This document shows, one piece after another, positions 2 through 57,362 of a DNA stretch of 64,000 nucleotides. The stretch covers positions 9,498 to 73,497 of the forward strand of contig CAYSPW010000002.1 of the NCBI GenBank assembly GCA_964433095.1. Reading direction: 5' to 3'. Source of the stretch: an uncultured Gammaproteobacteria bacterium (lineage in GTDB: Bacteria; Patescibacteriota; Patescibacteriia; Magasanikbacterales; UBA922). Positions within the stretch are counted from its first letter, which is position 1. Each line of letters starts with the position of its first letter. A program made the position numbers and the translations under genes. Under the pieces are notes generated by a model. That model did no database searches. It was given only the letters and a program-made list of their open reading frames with translations, and had not been told where the DNA came from.

Positions 2-2467
2 TCCATGAATTATAGCGAGGTAACTCCTCTGCATTTGCTGCTGGCTCTTTACCGGCAGTCCGGTTCTTTGGCGGCTGAAATTATGACCAAGCTGGAATTT
101 GACAAAAGCATAATTCTGGCGGAACTAAGAAAAAACAGTCCCGGCGTGAAGTCGGCTAATCAAATTCCCGAACTTGATTCCAAATCCCGCACCGCTTTGG
201 AAAAAGCCATGCTCATGGCTCACGATTATGAACATACTCACATTGGAACCGAGCATTTGCTTATGGGTCTGATTACTTGCGCCGACGCCAGAGTGGAAAG
301 AGTCCTGAAACGAAACACGGTCAAAAAAAAGCAACTGATCGATAATCTGAAAGCGGTATTTAGTAACACCAGCAAATTTCCCAGTATTGAAGATTTTTCC
401 GATATGATCGGCCGCATGCCGCATCTAAACCAGATGTCGGTTCCCGATAGCGACACGCAAAACCCTCTCACTTCATTGACACCGATGCCTGTAACAAAGA
501 ACAATAAAAATGATTCGTTCAGTTTGTTTACTCTGGAATTAACCGATCCCGCGATTCAAAAAAACATTGATCCGGTAATCGGCCGCGATCGGGAAATAGA
601 ACGAATCATCAACATATTGGCGCGACGAACAAAAAATAATCCCATCCTAGTGGGAGAACCGGGAGTGGGTAAAACAGCGATCGTGGAAGGATTAGCCAAG
701 AAAATCACGCGAGGAGACGTGCCCGATCTACTCAAAGAGAAAAAAATATTCGCCCTGGACATGAGCCTGCTCATATCCGACACCATCTACCGCGGCGAGT
801 TTGAGTCCCGTTTGAAGCAAATTATTGAACAAGTGGCAAAAAACAAACAATACATACTATTCATTGACGAAATTCATAATATTATTGGCACCGGCTCCAA
901 CCAAGGCGCCATGGACGCGGCCAATATTCTCAAGCCGGCTTTGGCCCGCGGTCAGCTGCGCTGCATCGGTGCCACCACTTTAGGGGAGTATAAAAAGTAT
1001 ATCTCATCGGATCCGGCTTTGGAAAGGCGTTATCAAGAAGTGTTGATCCAAGAAACCACCCCGGAGCAAACCGTTGATATAATATCCGGAATAAAAAAAT
1101 ATTATGAAAACTACCATAATACCTTGATCACGGACCAAGCCGTGAAAGCGGCGGTTCGTCTATCGCACAAATACATACATGATAATTTTTTACCGGACAA
1201 AGCGATTGACCTGATAGACGAGGCTTCAGCTGCCGTCAGAGTAAAGCAAAAAAAGAATAATTTGGAAAAACAAAAACAATCACTGCTCAATCGGCTCGGT
1301 CAAGCAAAAGAACAAAAAAAATGCTCTATTGCCCAAGAAAAATTTTCCACGGCCAAAAAATGGAAATCCGAAGAAGAAAAAATCACTAAAAAAATCAATC
1401 AACTGGATGAAAAAAAGAGCAAAAACAATAAAAAAATGAAAAAAAGAGTACAGGAAAAGGAAATAATACAAATCATTGCCCAAAGATTGAATATTGACCC
1501 TAAGATACTTTCCAAAAACGAATGGGAACAGCTGGGCACTCTTGAAAAAAGATTAAACACGAAAATAATCGGACAGGAAGAAGCCATAACGCAAATCGTA
1601 TACAATCTGCAGCAGTCGCATTTAAACATCAAAAATCCCGAGAAACCTTTTGCTTCCTTGTTGTTTGTCGGTCCGTCCGGCACCGGCAAAACAGAGACCG
1701 CCAAAATCTTGGCTCGCGAATATTTCCATGATAAAGACGCATTGATCAAGCTGGACATGAGCGAATTTTCCGAGTCGCACGGCGTTTCCAAACTGCTCGG
1801 CTCACCCGCCGGCTATGTGGGCTATAATGAACGTAATTTGTTTTTGGAAAAATTAAGCAAAAAACCGCATAGCGTTATTTTACTTGATGATTTCGACAAG
1901 GCGCATGCCGGCATCAAAAAATTATTACTGCAAATACTGGACCAGGCTTATCTCACCGACAACATGGGTAAAAAAATCAACTTCAAACATGCTATAATAA
2001 TCCTAACCACCAATTGCGGAACAGAACTCTTTAAATCGGCGGAGATCGGTTTTAATCGCGACGGCGGAAATACCAAGGTCAAAAAACAAATTATTGACTC
2101 AAGGCTAAAACAAAAATTCGGCCATGAATTGATCAGCCGCCTGGACAAAGTGATTGTATTTCACTCGCTTTCCAGAAAAAAAGTGGAAAAAATCATTGAA
2201 AATAAAATTGCTTTGCTGGCGTGCCGACTGGAAAAAGAACAGTCGTTCATACTTGAAACAGATAAAAAAGCAATCCAAAAATTGGCCGCCCACGCCTTTG
2301 ATCCTGACTTGGGCGCGCGCCGAGTGGAAAATATTTTGCAAGAGCGTCTGCACAGACTGTTGATTGATCTGATGGCAAATAATGCTCAAATCAAAGAAAA
2401 ATCACCAGCAAAGAAAAAAATCATGCTGTCGGTAAAACAAAACAAGTTGGAAATGCACAAGATATAA
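2..2467 (+). CDS. clpC: ClpC/ClpB-family AAA+ chaperone ATPase, probably 5'-truncated by window edge (only one Clp_N repeat present)
   Basis: Clp_N repeat ([12 protein letters not shown]); two Walker A motifs ([15 protein letters not shown] and [17 protein letters not shown]); lysine-rich coiled-coil middle domain; C-terminal ClpB_D2-small-like region. Confidence 0.85.
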
Positions 2468-2504: not shown

Positions 2505-3659
2505 GTGGAAGCAAGTATGGCTGACAACAACAACCAAGATTTGGCCGCCGAACTTAAAAAAGCTCTCCGCAAAGAGTCTCTTTTGCGAGATGCCAAGCAA
2601 AGCGACATTGAAAAAGTTTCAGAAGAAATATCCGAGCAGATCAGACAAGGCGCCGAAGAACTGACTCAAGACATGTTTGCCGACACCGATCCGACCGAAA
2701 ATGAACAAATTGATCGGAGTGAAACCGAAACTACTCGCGAGACCGCGCCTGAAACCGACGCCGCGGCACCCGGCGCCGCCGAGCGGACAAGACCGGCAAT
2801 TGATTCTGAAAAACCTTCGTTTCCCGAACAGTCTATAGACAGAGCAAGAAATGCGGCCGCGACGCCGGAGGAAACGGAACCATCCACCGAAACGTCCCGG
2901 CCCGATCAACAACCGGAACAATACCGCCCTTTTGAACAGGGTCCGGAATTGATTGAATCCGAACCGACTGAAAGAAGATCAGACCAAAATGAACAGCCCG
3001 AACCTCAGACTGCCGAAGAAGAGATGACCGATCAAAAAGAAAACGCCGCCCGACTGAGAGCTGACAGAAGAAAAAGCGACTTGACGCGTCAGCGAAAAGG
3101 AGATGGAATGGACGCGGAAGAATTCGCCCGAAAACATAATGTGGATCTGGAGGGCAATGTGAGTGGCGATCCGAGAGCGGCAGCAGCCGGTAAAGTGGGA
3201 GAGGTTTTTGGAAAAGAATTAAGTCGCAGAATCGCCACCGGCAGCTTCCGTGCCTTTGCCATCGCTTTGACACTCGCTCTGATCAAAGACGGAGGCGATT
3301 TGGTGGGTTTGGCCGATGCCGGAACCTTCACATACATGATTCTAGGTTCAGTTGACCTGATGATAACCGCCGCCCTTTCATTTATTATCGCCAGCCAAAC
3401 AGGATGGTTGAAGATGAAAATCCAGAAAGTGTTTATTAGAAAATTCGTCGGTTCCATAGTCATTGAATTACTACCTTTCGGCGAATTTATTCCACTCTAT
3501 ACGGTTATGATACTACTGCTTAAACGTGACGCGGACCGCGACCGCAAAAAACATCAAAAAGCACAAGGGGATCTGCAACAACAGATGAAAAAAATCAGCC
3601 GGCGGTCAATTCCCAAAGGCCGGCAGCTGCAGCGAGTAACGGCTGCAATGGGGGGATAA
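2505..3659 (+). CDS. hypothetical protein, acidic low-complexity N-terminal region (E/T/P/A-rich) with C-terminal transmembrane helices
   Basis: ORF with biased composition; hydrophobic segments near C-terminus (FRAFAIALTLALI, MILGSVDLMITAALSFIIAS, FVGSIVIELLPF). Confidence 0.5.
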   Translation: MEASMADNNNQDLAAELKKALRKESLLRDAKQSDIEKVSEEISEQIRQGAEELTQDMFADTDPTENEQIDRSETETTRETAPETDAAAPGAAERTRPAIDSEKPSFPEQSIDRARNAAATPEETEPSTETSRPDQQPEQYRPFEQGPELIESEPTERRSDQNEQPEPQTAEEEMTDQKENAARLRADRRKSDLTRQRKGDGMDAEEFARKHNVDLEGNVSGDPRAAAAGKVGEVFGKELSRRIATGSFRAFAIALTLALIKDGGDLVGLADAGTFTYMILGSVDLMITAALSFIIASQTGWLKMKIQKVFIRKFVGSIVIELLPFGEFIPLYTVMILLLKRDADRDRKKHQKAQGDLQQQMKKISRRSIPKGRQLQRVTAAMGG

Positions 3660-3688: not shown

Positions 3689-4909
3689 ATGGACAAAAAA
3701 CGCATCGGTTTAATAATACTATTCTCTTTGGTTTCGGTTATACTGGCCTATGCCATGTACAGAATATTTTTTTATCAACCGGCACGGCCGAGTGAACCGA
3801 CCGCTCCTGGAGAAATCTCGCCCGGAGAAGCTTTTCCCCGGGCCGGTGAAGGAGAACCGAGGCGTCCGGGCGTCACTCAACCCGGACGGCTGCCCGCCGG
3901 AGAAGCGCTCGCTCCGGAACAAGCCGGACCGGCAGTTACAACGGAAAAGCTTGGTGTGCGAGTGGTGGATAATATTGTGGATAACGCCGGCATTGATCCG
4001 AGCGGCGACATGAAATTTTACTCTCGCCAAGACGGTAAATTTTATCGCTACAGCGATATCGGCGGAGTTGAACCTTTGACCGACCAGGTTTTTTACAATG
4101 TGGAAAAAGTCACTTGGTCGCCGACCAGAAACGAAAGCATAATTGAGTATCCGGATGGCTCCAACATTTATTACAATTTTGACAACAAAAAGCAGACTAC
4201 CCTTCCCAAACACTGGCAGGAATTTGACTTTTCTCCGACAGGCGACCGAATCGCCGCCAAAAGCATGGGTTTGTCGCCGGAAAACAGATGGTTGGTGACC
4301 TCTGATCCGCAAGGTTCAAGTATCCAAGCGATTGAGCCGCTTGGAAGCAACGCCGACAAAGTGATCGTGGATTGGTCCCCCAACCGACAGATTGTGGCTT
4401 TATCCACCACCGGCGAAGCATTGGGTGGTTACCGGCAAGAAGTTTTGTTTATCGGCTTACATGGAGAAAATCTGCCCTCCACGATCGTAGAGGGCAACGG
4501 TCTGCAAACCTCTTGGTCGCAAAACGGACAAAAGCTGCTCTACAGCGTTTATTCGCCACGCAGCGAATACAAACCCGAGTTATGGGCGGTGAACGCCGAA
4601 GGTCAAAATATCGGTACGGAAAGAAAAGCGCTTAATGTCAATACCTGGGCGGAAAAATGCACTTTCCAGGACGACAGATATGTATATTGCGGTGTACCCG
4701 TAAATCTTAATACCGGTGCCGGCTTTAATCCTGAAATGGCCGAATCGACGATGGACGAAATCTATCGCATAGACACCCAAACCGGATTAAAAACATTAAT
4801 TGAATTGGATAGCGTGCACACGGTGGATAACATATTCATCGGTGACGACGGCCACACATTGTATTTTACGGATAAAAATACGGACGGCCTCTTTTCAGTT
4901 GATATTTAA
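3689..4909 (+). CDS. membrane-anchored protein with Pro-rich linker and PD40/TolB-like beta-propeller repeats
   Basis: N-terminal TM helix, P/G/E-rich linker, repeated W-S-P/D-x-S-P-x-G-D motifs typical of PD40 propeller blades. Confidence 0.55.
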   Translation: MDKKRIGLIILFSLVSVILAYAMYRIFFYQPARPSEPTAPGEISPGEAFPRAGEGEPRRPGVTQPGRLPAGEALAPEQAGPAVTTEKLGVRVVDNIVDNAGIDPSGDMKFYSRQDGKFYRYSDIGGVEPLTDQVFYNVEKVTWSPTRNESIIEYPDGSNIYYNFDNKKQTTLPKHWQEFDFSPTGDRIAAKSMGLSPENRWLVTSDPQGSSIQAIEPLGSNADKVIVDWSPNRQIVALSTTGEALGGYRQEVLFIGLHGENLPSTIVEGNGLQTSWSQNGQKLLYSVYSPRSEYKPELWAVNAEGQNIGTERKALNVNTWAEKCTFQDDRYVYCGVPVNLNTGAGFNPEMAESTMDEIYRIDTQTGLKTLIELDSVHTVDNIFIGDDGHTLYFTDKNTDGLFSVDI

Positions 4910-4917
4910 AAAAACAT

Positions 4918-5559
4918 ATGCCGAGCGTAAAAAAACTACTCATAATTTTCATACCGGCAATTATCATCGCCCTGGTGACTCTTAGTATAAGGGTGTTGCA
5001 ATATATTCCGACTGAAACAAAAGCGGTGGAACAAACCGATTCGGTTTATCAATCACTGATCCCAATTTTTGAAAACGACCCTATATTGGGTTCAAAAAAA
5101 GCCGGCCATACCGTAATAATCTTCGCCGATTTTGCCTGCGAAGCATGCGCGGCCCAAGATAAAATACTGGAAGATCTGATGAAAAAACATCGTGGACAAA
5201 TCAAGGTAATATGGAAAGGACTACCGGTGGCGCGTTTTCCTTTCAACTCACTGGAAGCGCATCGTTACGCCTATTGCGCCAATGAGCAAAACAAATTTGA
5301 ACAATTCGCCAAACTGACCTACACCAACTCAGACAATCTGTCAAGCGCCGCTATCGGCAGAATAGTCAATGAAATCGGCCTTGATCAAGAAAAAATGAAG
5401 CGCTGTTTGGAATCAAACCGGCCGGACGAACACATTGAATTAAACAAGCAGTTGGCCTCCTCTTTAAACATACAGGCCGTTCCGGCTATTTTTTACAATA
5501 ACAAACAACATAAAAGCCCACGGATTATTGAACAGTGGGAAGCTTTGTTAAATCTTTAA
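4918..5559 (+). CDS. DsbA/thioredoxin-like thiol-disulfide oxidoreductase, membrane anchored
   Basis: N-terminal TM helix; CxxC motif (FACEACAAQD) in thioredoxin-like context. Confidence 0.7.
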   Translation: MPSVKKLLIIFIPAIIIALVTLSIRVLQYIPTETKAVEQTDSVYQSLIPIFENDPILGSKKAGHTVIIFADFACEACAAQDKILEDLMKKHRGQIKVIWKGLPVARFPFNSLEAHRYAYCANEQNKFEQFAKLTYTNSDNLSSAAIGRIVNEIGLDQEKMKRCLESNRPDEHIELNKQLASSLNIQAVPAIFYNNKQHKSPRIIEQWEALLNL

Positions 5560-5561
5560 TT

Positions 5562-8306
5562 ATGGCCAAGTTTTTACAAATTTCTACCCTGGCGGTATTG
5601 ATTTCCACAGCAATATTTGATTTCATCCCGGCACGAGCCGCCACCGATTTTACTTACAAAACCGAGATCGCCTCCACCCCGCTCGGCGCGAACGTACAGC
5701 TGGTGGAATACGATACCGCCTGCCCTACCGGAAACGATTCCGGCTCCGATCCCAATCAAGGAATAATTATTACCAGAAACGCGGCCAGTCAAGTACGGGA
5801 AATATACTTTTACTTTCCCGGCAACAATGCGTCCGGAGTGGATCGGGAACCGGAAGATGTATGTTATTCAAATAACACCAAACTCTGCGACATTGTGAAC
5901 AACAATCAAAACTTGGCCATAGTGGCTTTTAACAAAAGCGTATCACCGCGCAACACCCGACAATGGCTGCAAGAACCGGAACACATGCGCTGTTTCATTA
6001 ACGAAGCCAAGAATAAATTAAGAGAACTGGGCGTGTCTTCCAATCGTTTGAATCTGGCCGGACACAGCGGGGGGGGACTGCAGGTCCTGCGCGCAACCAA
6101 AAATTCAGGCTTGAGCTTCAGCCGCGGCATCTTTTTTGACGCTTGCTACGGAACACAATGTTCGGACGCGGCCGCCACCGGCAGAACCGGCGACCTTTTT
6201 ATCTATTATCGGGCCGATTCCGATACCGAACAGGATTCGGTAAATACCAAAGACGGCTTTGCCGACAAAGTCAAGCTGGTCCAAACAACGGCCGCGCACG
6301 GATCCATTCCGCAATCATGCTTTTTGGATCATCTTGATAACAGTCTATGCGACGGCACCGGCACTGAGATCGGCACTCCGTTTGCGGGCGAAGCGCCACC
6401 GACCACCGAAGTTTCACCCGCCCCGGCCGGTTCCACACCGAGCGACGCGGCCGGCACAACTGACAGCTACTATTCCCAATCAGACATACAGGAATTGATT
6501 AGCGCACCACAGCCGATAATTAACATTCCCGGTCTGCAATTTTCCGATGCCGACCTGAGCCGTCTTTTCACTACCGACTACGATGAATTCGGCCGTGAAA
6601 ACACCTATTACTACTTCCCTTTCCTGGGTGAATATCTGGCCGCCGCCTACCGCTATGCCGTCGGTGCCGCCGCCATTCTGGCCATCGTGATAATTATCAT
6701 ATCCGGACTGCAATGGGCAGCTTCGGCCGGCAATCAAGAAACCATCGGCTCGGCCAAAAAGAGAATTTTTGGAGCTTTAATCGGCTTGTTTTTGGCTGTC
6801 GGTTCCTACACCATATTGTATACCATCAATCCCGAACTGACGGAATTTGCCAGTCTGAAGGTTTTAACCATAAAAGGCGAAGCGATTAATCTGGAAGGTC
6901 CTTCCGGAGACGCGGAAGAAGAAGCGGCGCGCCGCCTGCGGCGTGAAGACACTCCTCTCGGCACCACTGTTAGCGGTTCGCGACTTTTTCAACCTCCGAA
7001 CCAAGACAGCTTTTGCTTTCCGGTAGCCAAAGACGGATATGTAAAAAATACCAATAACTGGGGTCAATCCAGAGTTAAAAAAACCGGGGAAAGGGTGCGC
7101 TGCCACGCCGGAGTGGATCTGTTAACGGACGGAACCAATAACAGAGGTACGGTTTTATCAATGACCGACGGCGAAGTGATGCTGATCAGCCGCCGTTTTA
7201 CCGAATGTAAAGACGGACGTACCGAAAAAACCGGTCCCGGAACTTATGAGTGGGTGGGAGCGATATATGTCTATGACAGAAGAAACAATTTCACATATAT
7301 CTATGGCGAAATTAACAATGATACCATCAAGGTAAAAAAAGGAGATATGGTAAAAAAAGGACAAACACTCGGAATAGCATCCAAATGCACCATGCTGCAC
7401 CTGGAAGTATACGCGGGCAAAGGCAGAAAAACCGGCACTTCGATGTACGTAAGCGCCTTTGGCAAGAAAAAATCCGGCTGGTATTTGTTTGACGAACTCA
7501 AGGAACCACTTAACCTGCCCGACCAATTAAATCAAGGAAGAAACATCTGCGCTCAAGATCCGTATTTGCAAATATTGAACAAAACCGGCTCTACTCTTCT
7601 TGATCCGCGACAGTTTTTAAACAACATCAAAGACAATTTTTGCGAACCGGATAAATACTACGCTCCGCCGGCCGATACCGACGTGGAGCTCGCGATCCAG
7701 CAATTCTCTGCCTGCCACGGAATCGACTGGCGCGTTTTCAGGGAAACGGCCATGGCTGAAAGCTCGCTCCGTCCGCATGCCAAACTGGGACGATATTACG
7801 GTCTTTTTCAAGAAAGCGAGACTTATTGCAAAGAAGGATTGCGTTACGGTGATTACTCCATTGTTGGATTAAGCGTCGATAACTGCGAGAACGGATCAGC
7901 GGACGATCTAAGTGGACGCTTTGATATTCGCACCAATGTGGCCGCAGCCGCCGGATATATAAATTTTTTACTGCAGAGAATAGACAGAAAGTGCCCCGGC
8001 ATCAGCGCTTACGACGGCTTGACTTTGATGTATATCGGCCATAATAACGGCATTGGAGTAATGACCAGAATAATTACAAATATGAATGACGACAATGTAG
8101 CCTGCAACATGTCCAATATTTATCGTTACACTCGCGACTATTACATTGAACGCGGCGGCTCTGCTCATGGAGTTACTTTGCAGGAAGCTATGCGCAAATA
8201 TAATCATGGAAAAACATATATCACCGATGTACTTTTCGGCGCCAATAAAAGCGCTCCGCTTGATGTGATATTTGTGGGTAAAAATCCGCAATTGTGTCCG
8301 GATTAA
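5562..8306 (+). CDS. multidomain secreted/membrane cell-wall hydrolase: esterase-like N domain (GHSGGG), two TM helices, M23 (LytM) peptidase, SLT lytic transglycosylase
   Basis: signal peptide after internal Met (MAKFLQISTLAVLISTA); G-H-S-G-G nucleophile-elbow motif; hydrophobic helices (AILAIVIIIISGL, LIGLFLAVGSYTILY); M23 motifs (RCHAGVDL ... CTMLHLEVY); SLT-like catalytic region (AMAESSLRPHAK...YYGLFQ). Confidence 0.7.
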   Translation: MAKFLQISTLAVLISTAIFDFIPARAATDFTYKTEIASTPLGANVQLVEYDTACPTGNDSGSDPNQGIIITRNAASQVREIYFYFPGNNASGVDREPEDVCYSNNTKLCDIVNNNQNLAIVAFNKSVSPRNTRQWLQEPEHMRCFINEAKNKLRELGVSSNRLNLAGHSGGGLQVLRATKNSGLSFSRGIFFDACYGTQCSDAAATGRTGDLFIYYRADSDTEQDSVNTKDGFADKVKLVQTTAAHGSIPQSCFLDHLDNSLCDGTGTEIGTPFAGEAPPTTEVSPAPAGSTPSDAAGTTDSYYSQSDIQELISAPQPIINIPGLQFSDADLSRLFTTDYDEFGRENTYYYFPFLGEYLAAAYRYAVGAAAILAIVIIIISGLQWAASAGNQETIGSAKKRIFGALIGLFLAVGSYTILYTINPELTEFASLKVLTIKGEAINLEGPSGDAEEEAARRLRREDTPLGTTVSGSRLFQPPNQDSFCFPVAKDGYVKNTNNWGQSRVKKTGERVRCHAGVDLLTDGTNNRGTVLSMTDGEVMLISRRFTECKDGRTEKTGPGTYEWVGAIYVYDRRNNFTYIYGEINNDTIKVKKGDMVKKGQTLGIASKCTMLHLEVYAGKGRKTGTSMYVSAFGKKKSGWYLFDELKEPLNLPDQLNQGRNICAQDPYLQILNKTGSTLLDPRQFLNNIKDNFCEPDKYYAPPADTDVELAIQQFSACHGIDWRVFRETAMAESSLRPHAKLGRYYGLFQESETYCKEGLRYGDYSIVGLSVDNCENGSADDLSGRFDIRTNVAAAAGYINFLLQRIDRKCPGISAYDGLTLMYIGHNNGIGVMTRIITNMNDDNVACNMSNIYRYTRDYYIERGGSAHGVTLQEAMRKYNHGKTYITDVLFGANKSAPLDVIFVGKNPQLCPD

Positions 8307-52353: not shown

Positions 52354-52833
52354 ATGTCAAGCAGACATTTAGCTCGTTCCATAGCCATGCAAAGCTTGTA
52401 TCAATGGGATTTCAAGGGTCGGCCAACCGCCGTATTGCCGGCTATTATAGAACACAATTTGGAAGAATTCGGTCCCGGACTGGAAGATGAAAAAAAATTT
52501 GTTCATGATACGGTTGACGGCGTGATAGATCATCTGAATAAAATCGACAAATTGATCGAAAACTTTTCCACAAACTGGCCGCTGGAGCAGATATCAATCG
52601 TGGACAGAAATGTCTTGCGCATTGGGGTGTACGAGTTAAAATTTAATGACAATATTCCGGCCAAAGTAGCAATTAATGAAGCCATAGAACTGGCTAAAAA
52701 TTTTGGCGGCGGCGCTTCCGGTAAATTTGTTAACGGTATATTGGGAGCGATTTACCAACAGATGGACAATGACGACAAACAACAAAATACCAAAGCGGAA
52801 GGGGAAAAGCAAGCGCGAGCTGACAATAATTGA
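52354..52833 (+). CDS. nusB: transcription antitermination factor NusB
   Basis: NusB signature ([14 protein letters not shown]) and helical core. Confidence 0.85.
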
Positions 52834-52927
52834 TTATTATTAAGATAATATAAACAGCCTTTAATCTTTTGTATACCTTTTTTTAAACAGGTATACAAAA
52901 AAATATGGGCTTTTTAAAATAAACAGT

Positions 52928-53689
52928 ATGGTCGTACAAGCCTATAGAGAAAAAAAATTCTCCCGATTGGAGGAAAACATCGGTATTAAATTTAACAATC
53001 CCGATTTGTTGGTGCAAGCGATGGTGCATCGCTCGTTTTTAAACGAAAATCGTGATTTTCCTCTGCCCCACAACGAAAGAATGGAATTTTTAGGAGACGC
53101 GGTTTTGGAGCTGGCGGTAACCGAGTTTTTGTTTGAAAATTATCTTAATCCGGAGGGCGAACTGACCAACTGGCGGGCGGCACTGGTAAACGCTAAAATG
53201 TGCGCCCGAGTGTCCAATGAACTGGACTTGAATTCTTATCTTTTTCTCAGCCATGGCGAACAGAAAGATGACAGTAAAAAAGCGCGCGACTATATACTGT
53301 CAAACGCGATTGAAGCTTTGATCGGAGCGATATATTTGGATCAAGGCTGGGATATTGCCAAGCAATTCATTCTCCGCAATATTGTTGACAAACTGCCCGA
53401 AGTGCTGGAAAAAGGCTTATGGATGGATCCGAAATCCAGATTCCAGGAAGCATCACAGGAAAAAACCGGGGTTACACCCATGTATAAAGTTCTCAAAGAA
53501 GAAGGTCCGGATCATGATAAACTGTTCGTGGTCGGCGTCTATTTGGACAAACAAAAAATAGCGGAAGGCGAAGGCGGCTCAAAGCAGGAAGCGCAAGTGG
53601 CCGCGGCCGAACAAGCTCTGGAAGAAAAAAAATGGAAAGGGCCGAAAGTGGAAATTCTGGAACGAGGGCCGGAAGATTTGATCGGATAA
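52928..53689 (+). CDS. rnc: ribonuclease III
   Basis: RNase III signature ERMEFLGDAVLE and C-terminal dsRBD. Confidence 0.9.
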   Translation: MVVQAYREKKFSRLEENIGIKFNNPDLLVQAMVHRSFLNENRDFPLPHNERMEFLGDAVLELAVTEFLFENYLNPEGELTNWRAALVNAKMCARVSNELDLNSYLFLSHGEQKDDSKKARDYILSNAIEALIGAIYLDQGWDIAKQFILRNIVDKLPEVLEKGLWMDPKSRFQEASQEKTGVTPMYKVLKEEGPDHDKLFVVGVYLDKQKIAEGEGGSKQEAQVAAAEQALEEKKWKGPKVEILERGPEDLIG

Positions 53690-53695
53690 AATTAG

Positions 53696-53768
53696 GCGCC
53701 GTTAGCTCAGTTGGTAGAGCAGTTGCCTCTTAAGCAAACGGTCGAGGGTTCGAATCCCCCACGGCGCA
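53696..53768 (+). tRNA. tRNA-Lys (anticodon CTT), hand-folded, two stem mismatches
   Basis: acceptor GCGCCGT/ACGGCGC, D-arm GCTC-AGTTGGTA-GAGC, anticodon loop CTCTTAA, T-loop TTCGAAT. Confidence 0.7.
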
Positions 53769-53798
53769 CCGAGCGGCTTCGCCGCTTTAAAATTTCAC

Positions 53799-53872
53799 GC
53801 ACCCGTAGTTCAACTGGATAGAACGCCTGGCTTCGGACCAGGAAGTTGTGGGTTCGAATCCTGCCGGGTGTA
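53799..53872 (+). tRNA. tRNA-Arg (anticodon TCG)
   Basis: acceptor GCACCCG/CGGGTGT, anticodon stem CCTGG/CCAGG loop CTTCGGA, T-arm GTGGG-TTCGAAT-CCTGC. Confidence 0.8.
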
Positions 53873-53881
53873 CTCAAGTAC

Positions 53882-53955
53882 GGGCTGTTAGCTCAGTTGG
53901 CTAGAGCGTTGCATTCGCATTGCAAAGGCCGCCGGTTCAAATCCGGCACAGTCCA
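53882..53955 (+). tRNA. tRNA-Ala (anticodon CGC) with G3:U70 identity pair
   Basis: acceptor GGGCTGT/ACAGTCC (G3-T70), anticodon stem TTGCA/TGCAA loop TTCGCAT, T-arm GCCGG-TTCAAAT-CCGGC. Confidence 0.85.
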
Positions 53956-53962
53956 CAAAAAA

Positions 53963-54002: not shown

Positions 54003-54209
54003 TTACTTTTTGCCGTACTTTGACAGCATTACGGCTACGTTGACCGCGGACAAACCAACCAATGAATACACGATTCTGGAAAGCATTGACATGTCGCCGA
54101 AAAGAGTGGCCACCAAGTCAAAATTCAATAATCCGACCAAACCCCAGTTTAAACCGCCTACCACCACCAATACCAAAGCGACCCAATCCAGCCAATTTAA
54201 TTTTTTCAT
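54003..54209 (-). CDS. DUF378-like small membrane protein
   Basis: 68 aa, two TM helices, GGLNWGLVG motif. Confidence 0.6.
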   Translation of the reverse strand: MKKLNWLDWVALVLVVVGGLNWGLVGLLNFDLVATLFGDMSMLSRIVYSLVGLSAVNVAVMLSKYGKK

Positions 54210-54264
54210 ATGACAAGCATTTTTTTGTATAAATATTAAAAGCGACCTTTATTTTACTGTTGCT

Positions 54265-54273
54265 ATTATACCA
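54265..54273 (-). promoter_or_regulatory. extended -10 element (TGgTATAAT) upstream of DUF378 gene
   Basis: sequence read on minus strand, correct distance from start codon. Confidence 0.4.
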
Positions 54274-54300
54274 TAAAACGGCATTTTTGTGAAAATAAAC

Positions 54301-54321
54301 CCCCGCCAAATTGGCGGGGGG
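54301..54321. terminator. GC-rich hairpin CCCCGCC-aaatt-GGCGGGG with flanking T-runs on both strands (bidirectional terminator; ends minus-strand ncRNA)
   Basis: perfect 7-bp stem; T-rich tract on minus strand after hairpin. Confidence 0.6.
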
Positions 54322-54571
54322 TTACTTTTAACTGTACCCAAGAAGATATACGTTAGGAATATTACGAGCCGAAACCTGTAAGACCCTAGAGCATATCCCC
54401 ATGCTTGTCGTGGGCACAGAGCGTTGTATCACTGGGCAAATAAAGGGTCGAATCCAGATATACAAAGCTCCGTGCCCCTCTTCGCGCCCTGACCAAATCA
54501 AGGGTGGCACAGTTGTAAATTTTGTTTTCGTTAGCACGGCAACGCAAAATTTTGCTCTATGCTTAAGCTAA
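54322..54571 (-). ncRNA. candidate ~250-nt structured ncRNA of uncertain class (tmRNA-like GGGG...UCUGGAUUCGAC motif and SRP-like GGUCAGG...GAAG motif)
   Basis: bracketed by consensus sigma70 promoter and strong terminator; no ORF; GC-richer than surrounding. Confidence 0.4.
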
Positions 54572-54577
54572 CATACA

Positions 54578-54606
54578 ATTTTAGCAAAAACCAGATATAT
54601 TGTCAA
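54578..54606 (-). promoter_or_regulatory. near-consensus sigma70 promoter TTGACA-17 bp-TAAAAT driving the candidate ncRNA
   Basis: -35 TTGACA (54601..54606 rc), 17-nt spacer, -10 TAAAAT (54578..54583 rc). Confidence 0.55.
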
Positions 54607-54669
54607 GAGATTTACTCGGCAACCAGCTAAATTACGCTAATTTATGCAAAAAAATTAACTGACCATACC

Positions 54670-56622
54670 TTAATCGCTTTCTTCGGCCACGCTATTATCA
54701 TCCGTATTTTCAGCTTCATCAATTCCAATTCCAACCAGGCATATCTCGGGCAGCGGCCGGTAATGGGAAGAATACACTATTTTTTTCTCGTCTTCACCCG
54801 GTAATTGCCTAACGTAAGTGAAATACGCGTTCGCTCCGGTATATGCGTGCTGACATTGTTTTTCACCCGGATCCAGCTTGGTCGTTTCCACGATTCTGGT
54901 TTCACCGGGGGGAATCCAAGCGGTAACCTTGGGATGAGTATAATATGCCTTGCGCCCGTCATCGGTCCCCCACAAGGTGAATATAAGCTCCATGCGGTTG
55001 TAGTCGGCCTCGGCCTGCAGCAACACATAGTTGTCAGTATCGTTTTTGAATTTAAAATCAGGAGCCGGATCATAAATGGTAGCGTCCGTGCCGGGCAAGC
55101 CGTTGACCGGATCATCGTAATAATGTACCACCAGCGAATGGTTGCGCCTCTCCACTATCTCCATGCCCGAGTTCATGGCCATTCTGAATAAAGTGGTACC
55201 GATCTGGCACAAGCCACCGCCGATCTCCGGCTTTATCTCATCGCCTTTGATAACCAATTCCGGGTAATATCCGCCTTCAATGGTAAACGGCCTGGTGTAA
55301 ACCAAGGTGGAAAAAATCTCATCCGGCTTAACCAACACACCGTTCAATTTGGCCACCGCGTTGGCGATATTTCTGATTCTGTTTCTCGGACTGCCGGAAA
55401 AGTCGGAAATACCCACTCCCAGAACTTCCGCCACCCCAAGATCATTAACCTGCCCGGTCTTTATCTCCGGCTCTACCTGCTCAATTGCCAGCTGCACCTG
55501 TTCAACCAACCCCTCGTCATGCCAGCTGCGTTGTAAAATGGCGTCATTGATTAAATCATAACCACCCTCCTCGTCAAGACTGATTCCGGGGCGCGACCCT
55601 TTAAATTCCACCACCCGGCCGTATTGATTCATTTCAAACCTGGCATTTTCGGCCTGTACATCCACGATCGGCGCCACGTTTATTTCAAAATAGCTTAAAA
55701 CCGCGTTTTTATCCAGACCAAAACCGATTTCTTGTTGATCATTTTTCTGCACTTGCAGCCAATCGCGTAGATGACTCAATTTCAAAAACCAATTGTATTC
55801 TCTGTTCAAATGCGGATCGGTATAACTGAGCCTCAATCCTCCTAAAGCGAATATATCGGCCAGCCTTGGTTCAATTAATTCCACATCGCTTTCAACTATT
55901 GTCGGTTCGGTTTTCTTGTTCTCAATATATATATCCACCGGTTTCAACTTGGACCAACCATGCTTAATCTGAGCCGGTACCGTATCAAGGACATAAACCA
56001 CTCCGGGGGAAGATGACGTTATTTCGTAATCAAGCGGCACCACGCTCGTTATTTCAATATTGGCATTACGATGCTCCCGCTGGTGCGGCTGAAAACGTTC
56101 TCGCAGAATTTCCATAATTTTTTGCTGATTGACTTGTATGTTCTCAATTAAGAGCCTTTGTGAGTTTAGCCGGCTTGCAATCACGTTGTAGATATTGGAA
56201 AGCAAATCATCTCTTTTTCCATAAGCAAGCAGACGATCTGCCTCTTTATGCGCGTCCACGTAAACCAAATCAATGGAGCCGTCCTCGCCCACAATCAAGG
56301 GTGAAAGTATTAATTGCTGCCGTTCACCGGACGGGGCGTCAAAGCTGAATTTCAAACCTTGACTCGTCAGCTGGTCATTTTTTGACTGTATCAAATCCAC
56401 CAGCTCGTATCTTTTCATTCCTCCGATCAAATATTCTCCCAAATAAATGCCGGGGTTGACTCGATTTTGATAGCTGCCGGCGTAGCTCAAAAGTCCGAGA
56501 AAAAATCCGGATGAGACCACCACCAATATAATTAAAAAAATCCACAGCTTTTTCCAAGGGAATGCCGGTTTTCTTCTAAAAAGTCTGACTATTTTTTCGC
56601 GCGCGCTGTCTTTATCAAGCAT
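54670..56622 (-). CDS. VanW-family protein with N-terminal TM anchor
   Basis: C-terminal VanW core (GGGLCQIGTTLFRMAMNSG); 650 aa. Confidence 0.75.
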   Translation of the reverse strand: MLDKDSAREKIVRLFRRKPAFPWKKLWIFLIILVVVSSGFFLGLLSYAGSYQNRVNPGIYLGEYLIGGMKRYELVDLIQSKNDQLTSQGLKFSFDAPSGERQQLILSPLIVGEDGSIDLVYVDAHKEADRLLAYGKRDDLLSNIYNVIASRLNSQRLLIENIQVNQQKIMEILRERFQPHQREHRNANIEITSVVPLDYEITSSSPGVVYVLDTVPAQIKHGWSKLKPVDIYIENKKTEPTIVESDVELIEPRLADIFALGGLRLSYTDPHLNREYNWFLKLSHLRDWLQVQKNDQQEIGFGLDKNAVLSYFEINVAPIVDVQAENARFEMNQYGRVVEFKGSRPGISLDEEGGYDLINDAILQRSWHDEGLVEQVQLAIEQVEPEIKTGQVNDLGVAEVLGVGISDFSGSPRNRIRNIANAVAKLNGVLVKPDEIFSTLVYTRPFTIEGGYYPELVIKGDEIKPEIGGGLCQIGTTLFRMAMNSGMEIVERRNHSLVVHYYDDPVNGLPGTDATIYDPAPDFKFKNDTDNYVLLQAEADYNRMELIFTLWGTDDGRKAYYTHPKVTAWIPPGETRIVETTKLDPGEKQCQHAYTGANAYFTYVRQLPGEDEKKIVYSSHYRPLPEICLVGIGIDEAENTDDNSVAEESD

Positions 56623-56628
56623 CTTTTT

Positions 56629-57087
56629 TCACTCCTCAATAATGGTTATTGGAACCTTGCCTCCGCTAACCTGTTTTGGCGCTCTAATCAGAAGCACTCC
56701 ATTTTTGTACTCGGCGCGAGCCGCGTCTCCCTTGACATGGCTGGGCAGCACTATGGTGCGGGAAAATTTACCCCAAAAACATTCCCGATAAAAAAAATCC
56801 AGGTTTTTGTCAGGCAACGGAAAATTACGACTGCCTCTCACAGTGAGAAGATCATGGTGGATAAAAACTTCTATCTTGTCGGTCAACGCTCCGGCCATGG
56901 TGGAGATAACCACGATTTCATCTCTGGTTTCAGCCACATCTATGGCCAACTGTCCTTCCACGTGCTCGCTGTGCCAATCATCGGAAATCTCCATTCGCGA
57001 AGGCTCGGCCGATGCTTTGGCGTCCGCGCCGTCCTTGGCATTGAGAATCATCTCAAAAACTGCGGATTTTTTAGGTTCCTGATTCAT
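56629..57087 (-). CDS. Hsp20/alpha-crystallin family small heat-shock protein
   Basis: alpha-crystallin domain with C-terminal AEYKNGVLLIRAPK and I-x-I tail. Confidence 0.85.
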   Translation of the reverse strand: MNQEPKKSAVFEMILNAKDGADAKASAEPSRMEISDDWHSEHVEGQLAIDVAETRDEIVVISTMAGALTDKIEVFIHHDLLTVRGSRNFPLPDKNLDFFYRECFWGKFSRTIVLPSHVKGDAARAEYKNGVLLIRAPKQVSGGKVPITIIEE

Positions 57088-57179
57088 ATGTGACTATTAT
57101 ATACCAAAATACCAATTTGGTAAATAAAAAAACCGTATAATCCGGCTTAAGAAACCACCATTTGGTTTTTTAAATATTA

Positions 57180-57269
57180 TGGCGGAAGGGGCGGGATTCG
57201 AACCCGCGGTCCGCTTGCGCGGACAACAGTTTTCAAGACTGTCGCATTCAACCGCTCTGCCACCCTTCC
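57180..57269 (-). tRNA. tRNA-Ser (anticodon TGA), class II
   Basis: acceptor GGAAGGG/CCCTTCC, anticodon stem ACAGT/ACTGT loop CTTGAAA, long variable arm, T-arm GCGGG-TTCGAAT-CCCGC, CCA encoded. Confidence 0.85.
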
Positions 57270-57275
57270 CTGCGG

Positions 57276-57362
57276 CGGAGAGGGGGGGATTCGAACCCCC
57301 GAGCCGCTTGCGCGACTAACACCTTAGCAGGGTGCCCCTTTCAACCACTCAGGCACCTCTCC
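57276..57362 (-). tRNA. tRNA-Ser (anticodon GCT), class II
   Basis: acceptor GGAGAGG/CCTCTCC, anticodon loop CTGCTAA, long variable arm, T-arm GGGGG-TTCGAAT-CCCCC. Confidence 0.85.

Follow-up and report, generated by a model that had tools for sequence, protein, structure and literature searches.

Several described classes of bacterial RNA are comparable, in one respect or another, to the element analyzed here, an RNA gene on the minus strand, around positions 54606-54292, of a 64,000-nucleotide (nt) stretch of contig CAYSPW010000002.1 (positions 9,498-73,497 of the forward strand; this whole stretch is hereinafter called the window). TIGR (Tas-associated) arrays consist of tandem 36-nt units with box C/D motifs and adjoin a gene for a Nop-domain protein (PMC12045711); these arrays were rejected as a model because the tandem modules seen in some relatives of the present RNA measure approximately 120 nt and genes for Nop or Tas proteins are not found nearby. 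The RNA of the signal recognition particle (SRP) is hairpin-shaped and carries conserved nucleotides in asymmetric internal loops between covarying helices, as expected of a protein-binding RNA. The RNA described here has the same features but lacks the GNRA tetraloop and the symmetric CAGG/AGCA loop, and its conserved loop is located about 25 bp from the apex. Like 6S RNA, it is a stand-alone noncoding RNA (ncRNA) with a strong sigma-70 promoter that looks abundant and is single-copy and lineage-conserved, and the short-form members of the family partially resemble 6S RNA in that they form long, irregular rods whose middle is unpaired and which end in a stem-loop. However, the 6S bubble is two-sided, mimics an open promoter and is conserved mainly in shape, whereas the loop in the present family is one-sided and invariant in sequence; moreover, the long-form members, such as the RNA in the window, are multi-hairpin structures rather than rods. 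Occasional carriage by phages is a feature shared with the transfer-messenger RNA (tmRNA). The raiA motif RNA, OLE, ROOL and GOLLD are likewise families that are defined by covarying structure and conserved loops, are restricted to particular lineages and are sometimes phage-borne (ROOL and GOLLD are shared with phages), but the present RNA matches none of them in Rfam 15, belongs to a different host clade and occupies a fixed position next to genes for HSP20 and a VanW-like protein; compared to OLE, ROOL and GOLLD, it is also much smaller.

Bacteria that belong to the candidate phyla radiation (CPR), or Patescibacteria, account for a large share of bacterial diversity and have tiny genomes; to our knowledge, almost nothing is known about their regulatory RNAs. 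The initial annotation of the locus, made from the letters of the window, described a transcription unit and offered three identities for its product: a long SRP RNA, a tmRNA that is either degenerate or split into two pieces, and a novel ncRNA. The last of these possibilities is borne out by the analysis presented below, and the SRP and tmRNA assignments are not; the functional part appears to be a 3' core (54421-54329) that the annotation had not singled out. Judging by all the features of the sequence, the locus is a stand-alone gene, bracketed by a promoter and a terminator, for a structured ncRNA of about 280 nt. In the best overall explanation, to which we assign a probability of roughly 55%, this RNA represents a new family and would act in trans via its loop, with a partner that is most probably a protein.

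A conserved core within a stand-alone RNA gene

Relatives of the element were collected by two routes. One route made use of synteny with the gene for the VanW/YoaR-like protein (hereinafter VanW), whose homologues assign the source organism to Candidatus Magasanikbacteria: the contigs of three VanW homologues were examined first, and 80 more metagenome VanW loci were then scanned using nhmmer. Each of the first three contigs has an unannotated gap of 400-600 nt after VanW, and the window element has a homologue in these gaps; in L002, this homologue and VanW are on opposite strands, which was the first evidence of an independent gene. Overall, the element was found just past the 3' end of VanW, in either orientation, in approximately 75 of 84 VanW loci. 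The other route was a degenerate pattern of the core run over one genome per GTDB species, which retrieved at least 120 stretches. A covariance model (R1) was built from the core, with a seed alignment (A5) of 38 sequences. When 100 of the pattern loci were compared with R1, 97 matched, with scores of 58-105 bits and one sense match each, against at most 33 bits for antisense matches; the three misses (Chitinophaga, Uliginosibacterium and Lachnospiraceae) are chance matches expected of the pattern, and 20 other pattern loci also match the model. The window contains exactly one R1 match (Table 1).

The core consists of a 9-bp helix P1, a one-sided loop (J1/2), a 10-bp helix P2 that is coaxial with the 4-bp P3, and, beyond an internal loop, the hairpin P4; P2 and P3 together make up an irregular helix of approximately 17 bp. 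RNAalifold recovered P1, P2 and P4 unaided, and when the core of the window RNA was folded alone, the minimum-energy structure coincided with the one supported by covariation. The covariation among the homologues is strong. In the seed alignment, the predicted structure is 96.6% paired and 17 pairs show compensatory changes, a result not matched by any of 500 shuffles. The species-representative genomes supplied an independent set (A7) of 94 distinct sequences, in which the invariance of ACAAGCAUGG, GGY/RCU and CUUCU is partly imposed by the search pattern. In this set, 96.2% of the cells are paired, compared to 38-46% when the partners are slid by 1-3 columns, and double changes occupy 515 cells versus 38-85 in the slid controls. 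Compensatory change is seen in 20 of the 28 pairs of this set, and individual P1 positions show up to five pair types each. Two G.U pairs are invariant in A7, which fixes the strand of the RNA. The sequence ACAAGCAU is kept in 74 of the 75 VanW-synteny loci; however, the regular expression and the model employed for this set likewise favour this sequence. The loop CGACAAGCAU is single-stranded in all folds computed, and the fold of the core is the same in the long-form members, including the RNA in the window, and in the short, rod-like ones. The core thus appears to be the functional unit of the RNA.

The boundaries of the gene are equally well marked. The near-consensus sigma-70 promoter noticed initially is in place, with agreement at 11 of 12 consensus positions and a TG extension, and so is the strong hairpin terminator, in which the stem CCCCCGCC-AAU-GGCGGGGG has 9 pairs, 8 of them G-C, and is followed by UUUAUUUU; the RNA ends in this hairpin, and it has no T-arm or ACCA end, as the annotation had observed. 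A terminator-like hairpin with a T-run is located 3' of the core in 151 of 176 relatives. The fold of the 281-nt interval has an energy of -114 kcal/mol (z = -7.56; none of 200 shuffles was as good), compared with z = -3.5 for the plus strand of the same interval. The initial description of about 250 nt free of any open reading frame (ORF) does not hold literally, inasmuch as the region contains two mechanical ORFs, of 69 amino acids (aa; GTG start, 54537-54328) and 53 aa (TTG start), but its sense does: neither ORF has a Pfam match, and the frame that opens with an AUG inside the conserved loop varies from 3 to 84 codons among the relatives, with a mode of 4, which indicates that the region is non-coding. 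Insertions and deletions of 1-2 nt are common among the relatives, and with these observations taken together, a small protein gene was rejected.

In total, the core is present in at least ~190 loci, from genomes and metagenome contigs of CPR bacteria of the Parcubacteria group, with one copy per locus. The named hosts among the matches listed are Candidatus Magasanikbacteria, Uhrbacteria, Komeilibacteria and Buchananbacteria, 'Parcubacteria SG8_24' and 'Patescibacteria group'; the NCBI taxonomy treats Magasanikbacteria and Uhrbacteria as distinct candidate phyla within the Parcubacteria group. Divergent copies of the core were also detected in two IMG/VR contigs that pass R1, L205 (50.6 bits, positions 2511-2601) and L207 (48.6 bits, 3480-3568). 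By their gene content, these contigs are genuine phages: L205 encodes the small and large terminase subunits, a protein with a weak match to a portal family, a ParB-methyltransferase and GroEL, and L207 encodes the large terminase subunit and a methyltransferase. Neither contig encodes VanW. In L207, the core has a promoter of its own, TTGACC-18-TGnTATACT, and in L205, it is located just upstream of genes for a 58-aa ORF, Cpn10 (GroES) and GroEL. The presence of the core in phages that lack VanW implies that the RNA can work without VanW in its vicinity, an argument for action in trans. A survey of phages with a looser pattern gave 24 matches, of which the 22 additional ones all fail R1, and no blastn match was obtained among GenBank phages. 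Given that the structure is kept in at least four candidate phyla, that the promoter is near-perfect, that the linkage to VanW holds in either orientation and that phages carry copies, an important role of this RNA appears very likely.

Table 1. Positions of the RNA gene, of its parts and of the adjacent protein-coding genes in the window
Feature	Positions	Strand	Remarks
-35 hexamer TTGACA	54601..54606	-	TTGACN-16..18-TANNNT upstream of the RNA in 172/182 unique related loci
Extended -10 element TGcTAAAAT	54578..54586	-	17-nt spacer from -35; TG extension in 158/172 related promoters
Predicted primary transcript, ~280 nt	54292..54571	-	5' end placed 7 nt past -10 and 3' end at the end of the U-run, both by inference
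Hypervariable 5' domain	54422..54571	-	5' hairpin 54571-54531, S_a 54513-54505, small hairpin, hairpin b
Conserved core (P1, J1/2, P2, P3, P4)	54329..54421	-	R1 89.9 bits, E = 1.3e-20
P1, 5' strand CUGUGCCCA	54411..54419	-	P1 99.5% paired over 94 sequences; 7/9 pairs compensatory
J1/2, one-sided 10-nt internal loop CGACAAGCAU	54401..54410	-	Nearly invariant; opposite a single bulged U at 54341
P2, 5' strand GGGGAUAUGC	54391..54400	-	Partner 54351-54342; basal G-C and G.U invariant
P3, 5' strand UAGG	54385..54388	-	Partner 54357-54354; 85% paired, 4/4 pairs covary
P4 hairpin ACAGGU-UUCG-GCUCGU	54364..54379	-	UNCG-type tetraloop 54373-54370; invariant G.U and G-C below
3' strands of P3 (CCUA) and P2 (GUAUAUCUUC)	54342..54357	-	P3 54357-54354; P2 54351-54342
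P1, 3' strand UGGGUACAG	54332..54340	-	
Intrinsic terminator	54292..54320	-	Stem-loop 54320-54300, U-run 54299-54292
VanW/YoaR-like membrane protein, 650 aa	54670..56622	-	Upstream neighbour; RNA gene syntenic with its 3' end across the family
HSP20 gene	56629..57087	-	Pfam HSP20; first gene of the conserved HSP20-VanW-RNA block
DUF378 membrane protein, 68 aa	54003-54209		Downstream of the RNA

Comparison with known RNAs and candidate modes of action

No known RNA family was recognized in this region. At the gathering score, Rfam 15 identifies only tRNAs in the window, with no significant match to SRP RNA, tmRNA, 6S RNA or RNase P RNA; with E values of up to 10, all matches listed for positions 54200-54720 are driven by the terminator, and none is to a tmRNA, SRP, 6S or RNase P model. 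Likewise, no known family was found with Rfam in 15 related loci, nor in one typical relative at E values of up to 10. ARAGORN predicts eight tRNAs and no tmRNA in the window, and no tmRNA in 1.56 Mb of related loci. Both strings quoted in the initial annotation, GGGGCACGGAGC...UCUGGAUUCGAC and GGUCAGGGCGCGAAGAGGGGCAC, are indeed in the sequence, and UCUGGAUUCGAC has a 12-nt identity to the 5' region of the Escherichia coli tmRNA. However, this 12-mer is absent from all homologues, the region of UCUGGAUUCGAC and GGUCAGGGCGCGAAG cannot be aligned even with the nearest homologue, L001, and these strings are not found in L002 or L004; the region of the supposed tmRNA 5' element, GGGG...GGAUUCGAC, likewise does not align with L001, L002, L004 or any other relative, and its sequence differs in all of them. 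The tmRNA-like and SRP-like motifs, which reside in the hypervariable 5' part, are chance resemblances. A tmRNA was rejected also because the locus has no tRNA-like domain, T-arm, ACCA or tag ORF, and the tmRNA models (standard, alpha, beta, cyanobacterial and two-piece) are not matched; bacterial SRP RNA (RF00169 and RF01854) because there is no match up to an E value of 10, the apex is capped by UNCG and the SRP-like string lacks conservation; 6S RNA (RF00013) because there is no Rfam match, the loop has 10 nt facing 1 nt and the RNA in the window is multi-branched; and RNase P RNA, which is characterized by a P4 pseudoknot and the sequences CR-I to CR-V, because there is no Rfam match and ACAGG..CGGCUCG forms the simple covarying hairpin P4 rather than a long-range helix.

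A full-text literature search, by topic and by sequence string, found no description of this RNA either; taken together with the negative Rfam 15 result, this is why we treat it as a new RNA family. The one RNA system of CPR bacteria and phages that the search brought up, the TIGR arrays, is unrelated. The features by which the family is defined are all present in the window: the core with the CGACAAGCAU loop and the UNCG-capped P4, the TTGACA/TGnTAnnnT promoter, the terminator and the position past the 3' end of VanW. We claim novelty at the level of the RNA family; the mechanism may prove to be of a familiar kind. The 92-nt core, the covariance model and the defined invariant loop combine into an object that is tractable for experiment, and R1 can improve the annotation of the many CPR bins in which this intergenic region is now blank.

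With respect to the mode of action, we rank first, albeit tentatively, a trans-acting ribonucleoprotein (RNP) or decoy RNA, followed by an antisense regulator, with cis-acting, ribozyme or sensor, and 6S-like functions placed lower. The basis of this ranking is the invariance of the loop across candidate phyla, the tolerance of large insertions on the 5' side and the carriage by phages. The RNA would act in trans, and the surface formed by the invariant loop and the adjacent invariant pairs would be recognized by a conserved partner in the cell, most probably a protein; the RNA itself would be part of an RNP or a decoy rather than an antisense regulator of its neighbours; the position beside HSP20-VanW might, speculatively, point to a link to envelope or proteostasis functions. 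A more far-reaching formulation, namely, that this is the RNA subunit of an undescribed RNP, or a small catalytic or sensing RNA, that is CPR-specific, borrowed by phages and coupled to HSP20-VanW, and hence a new functional class distinct from antisense RNAs, must be considered less likely than not.

Several observations weigh against the trans-acting RNP. The binding of a protein is read from the pattern of conservation, the ends and the abundance of the transcript are deduced from the sequence, and the invariance of the loop in A7 stems partly from the search pattern. A loop that is single-stranded and invariant would be suitable as a seed for base pairing, too, and a stretch complementary to the loop precedes the DUF378 start codon, as detailed below. 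The tight linkage to VanW is left unexplained by a purely trans-acting model. Finally, the partner of the 3' strand of P1 in the covariation-supported structure is not the one that is thermodynamically best for the RNA in the window. There, the segment 54478-54467 is complementary to the 5' strand of P1, and S_a (54513-54505) is a copy of that strand, so that the global minimum-energy fold is nested, with the 3' strand of P1 paired to the upstream copy and hairpin b inserted between them; the energy of this fold is -110 kcal/mol, and that of the alternative with the local P1 is -96 kcal/mol. Neither the loop nor the P2-P4 hairpin differs between the two folds. The pairings of hairpin b and of P1 both covary in the Magasanikbacteria-type members; nevertheless, we do not claim a two-state switch between them, given that hairpin b is missing from the short-form members and looks like a by-product of tandem duplication.

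The antisense alternative, under which the loop CGACAAGCAU would be a seed for AUGCUUGUCG-type sites at translation starts, for instance in the DUF378 mRNA, is unlikely in our estimate, even though a number of features fit it. The loop is single-stranded in every fold, and the A-rich linker followed by the terminator is a typical 3' end of a small RNA. The complement of the loop, AUGCUUGUC(A/G)U, is located directly before the DUF378 start both in the window (54210-54222, minus strand) and in L001 (~6424-6436, plus strand), with 9 contiguous pairs in the former and 11 of 11 in the latter, and this stretch is conserved between the two whereas the remainder of the 5' untranslated region (UTR) of DUF378 is not. 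However, an upstream ORF of 4 codons (MLV[I/V]-stop), which overlaps the start codon of DUF378, can account for the same motif, and two more distant loci, L075 and L099, have DUF378 downstream of the RNA without such a site. Matches to the loop complement occur at the chance level in the window (16 versus 15.2 expected), and the 8-mer complement is not enriched in the 1.56 Mb of related loci (50 versus 48 expected). Nor do the start regions of VanW and HSP20 show conserved complementarity to the loop: antisense control of VanW was rejected because the AUGCUUG found at its start in the window, which is complementary to the loop over 7 nt, shows no conservation among 136 other VanW starts (energy of the duplex, -6.6 for VanW starts against -6.0 for shuffles), and control of HSP20 was rejected on similar grounds (-7.8 against -7.3). 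The invariance of a seed over four candidate phyla would, furthermore, be unusual for an antisense small RNA.

The gene order brings up a different explanation, a cis element of the HSP20-VanW operon, be it a 3' UTR or processing element, a convergent antisense or interference module, or a riboswitch-like leader of the downstream gene. The distance from the VanW stop to the loop is approximately 150-750 nt in the large majority of the loci, including those found by the RNA pattern alone, in convergent loci the RNA terminator abuts the VanW stop codon, and conserved loop nucleotides between covarying helices make an aptamer-like pattern. Nonetheless, no single cis geometry is kept: among the loci examined, the RNA is convergent with a nearby VanW in 97, co-directional in 68 and farther away in 17, which implies an independent gene, and 14 loci have no VanW in the stretch examined, many of them being at locus edges. 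A riboswitch or another cis leader was rejected also for the lack of an alternative pairing that would join P1 to the terminator and for the heterogeneity of the genes downstream of the RNA, of which there are none in convergent loci. As the RNA has its own promoter and terminator and the phage copies occur without VanW, we consider a cis element improbable. The persistence of the linkage to VanW in both orientations suggests selection for that linkage. Invariant G.U pairs are often metal or ligand sites, and such pairs together with an invariant junction-like loop, in a compact 92-nt core that is shared with phages, could belong to a small ribozyme or a trans-acting ligand-sensing RNA of an undescribed class; this is a highly improbable reading, given that there is no likeness to the ribozymes or riboswitches of Rfam and no cleavage-site architecture or expression platform is recognizable. 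The least probable of the explanations considered is a very divergent housekeeping RNA, that is, a 6S-like polymerase binder, an SRP RNA or a tmRNA. High expression, as implied by the near-consensus promoter, the single copy and the clade-wide conservation would all be in keeping with such a role, the short forms fold into one rod with a central unpaired loop that is superficially similar to 6S or 4.5S RNA, and the RNA in the window contains the tmRNA-like UCUGGAUUCGAC and a GGUCAGG...GAAG string; against these stand the negative Rfam and ARAGORN searches, the lack of conservation of both strings and of any T-arm, ACCA end or tag ORF, a one-sided loop in place of the two-sided 6S bubble, a UNCG apex in place of the SRP-type GNRA with AGCA and CAGG loops, the long forms that are not rods, and the restriction of the family to one lineage together with its presence in phages. 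Compared with these alternatives, the stand-alone RNA that acts in trans through its loop accounts best for the data.

Neighbouring genes, upstream elements and the variable 5' domain

An HSP20 gene precedes VanW in 154 of the 205 loci examined, and also in the window, whereas the flank on the opposite side varies among the loci, which defines HSP20-VanW-RNA as the conserved block. In the loci with a more distant VanW, the inserted genes are heterogeneous, and accordingly, the idea of a conserved gene in the space that separates VanW from the RNA was dropped. The block extends, on the side of HSP20, to tRNA-Ser(GCU) and tRNA-Ser(UGA), which precede HSP20 and VanW in a conserved order (window positions 54670-57362, minus strand). 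The HSP20 stop and the VanW start are separated by 6 nt, and in the window and in the relatives, no more than 6-9 nt separate the end of a TATAAT box from the HSP20 ATG; the operon mRNA thus appears to be leaderless. Chaperone genes adjoin the RNA in both of its settings, GroES/GroEL in phage L205 and the HSP20 operon in the hosts; with a single phage case, this may be a coincidence. On the other side of the RNA, the DUF378 gene is served by a second strong promoter, TTCACA-17-TGgTATAAT (54265-54293, minus strand), which begins within the U-run of the RNA terminator and whose -10 region is conserved in L001. Beyond DUF378, the genes for NusB and RNase III and a tRNA-Lys/Arg/Ala cluster are located on the plus strand (52354-53956), and L001 shows the same arrangement of DUF378, three tRNAs, RNase III, NusB and L32.

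Two sequence elements recur upstream of the RNA promoter. A DnaA-box-like sequence, TTATCCACA (with at most one mismatch), is found in 48 of 172 loci, with about 1 expected, and usually ends some 8 nt before the -35 hexamer (examples are L004, at ~6135-6150, L016, L033, L056, L057, L121 and L162); it is absent from positions 54607-54645 of the window. This distribution suggests that, in Magasanikbacteria-type genomes, the RNA is under the control of DnaA. A replication-origin element, an idea that arose from the DnaA boxes, was rejected because the GC skew of the window is monotonic and the RNA is located at approximately 74% and 44% of two complete chromosomes. The second element is a conserved inverted repeat (GGCTTAAATAAGCC type) between runs of A and T, which accompanies the RNA promoter in both orientations and sits 25-30 nt upstream of the -35 hexamer (for example, in L004, L005, L008, L021 and L030). 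Its strict form occurs in 30 of 167 loci versus 0.4 expected, and AGCC followed by an A/T run is present upstream of the promoter in 67 of 167 loci versus 3.8 expected; in the window, there is only a degenerate version, at ~54625-54650. This repeat could be a bidirectional terminator or an operator.

Dozens of third-party-annotation bins titled 'uncultured Gammaproteobacteria bacterium' (among L086-L204) carry the RNA together with a CPR-type VanW, and the organism name of these bins is probably wrong; one bin named Candidatus Binatia (L155) also has the RNA. In L025 (VanW at 1054-2922) and L062 (VanW at 4001-5881), more than 3 kb downstream of VanW contain no RNA detectable by nhmmer or the covariance model; in these two loci, the RNA either has been lost, has moved or has diverged past detection.

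The 5' domain, which houses the SRP-like and tmRNA-like strings, has a length of between about 25 and 415 nt within the family, and its sequence in the window is not conserved in L001, L002 or L004. Between the -10 element and the loop, there are 31 to 423 nt (median, 104), which identifies this domain as a variable scaffold. In the short-form (Uhrbacteria-type) members, a leader of 25-34 nt pairs with the segment just 3' of P1, resulting in one long rod. The long-form (Magasanikbacteria-type) members, including that in the window, have from one to several extra hairpins; in the window, these include hairpin b (54478-54411), the final bases of which are the first 12 of the core. In most long-form relatives, in addition, the core is separated from the terminator by an A-rich linker and a small covarying hairpin (such as UGGAGG-loop-CCUCCA); this hairpin is absent from the window (54321-54331) and from L001, and, by comparison with the relatives, the RNA in the window has lost it. 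In some loci, the extra hairpins are degenerate tandem copies of the core: L045 (~6274-6600), L044, L069, L009, L013, L021, L029 and L031 carry one to three additional modules of approximately 120 nt in the 5' domain; every module has CUGUAUCCACGAC at its end and resembles a duplicate of the core that has degenerated. In L020, the sequence GACAAGACAAUGGGCUUUGGGUAUAGAG is a remnant that imitates the loop followed by the 3' strand of P1.

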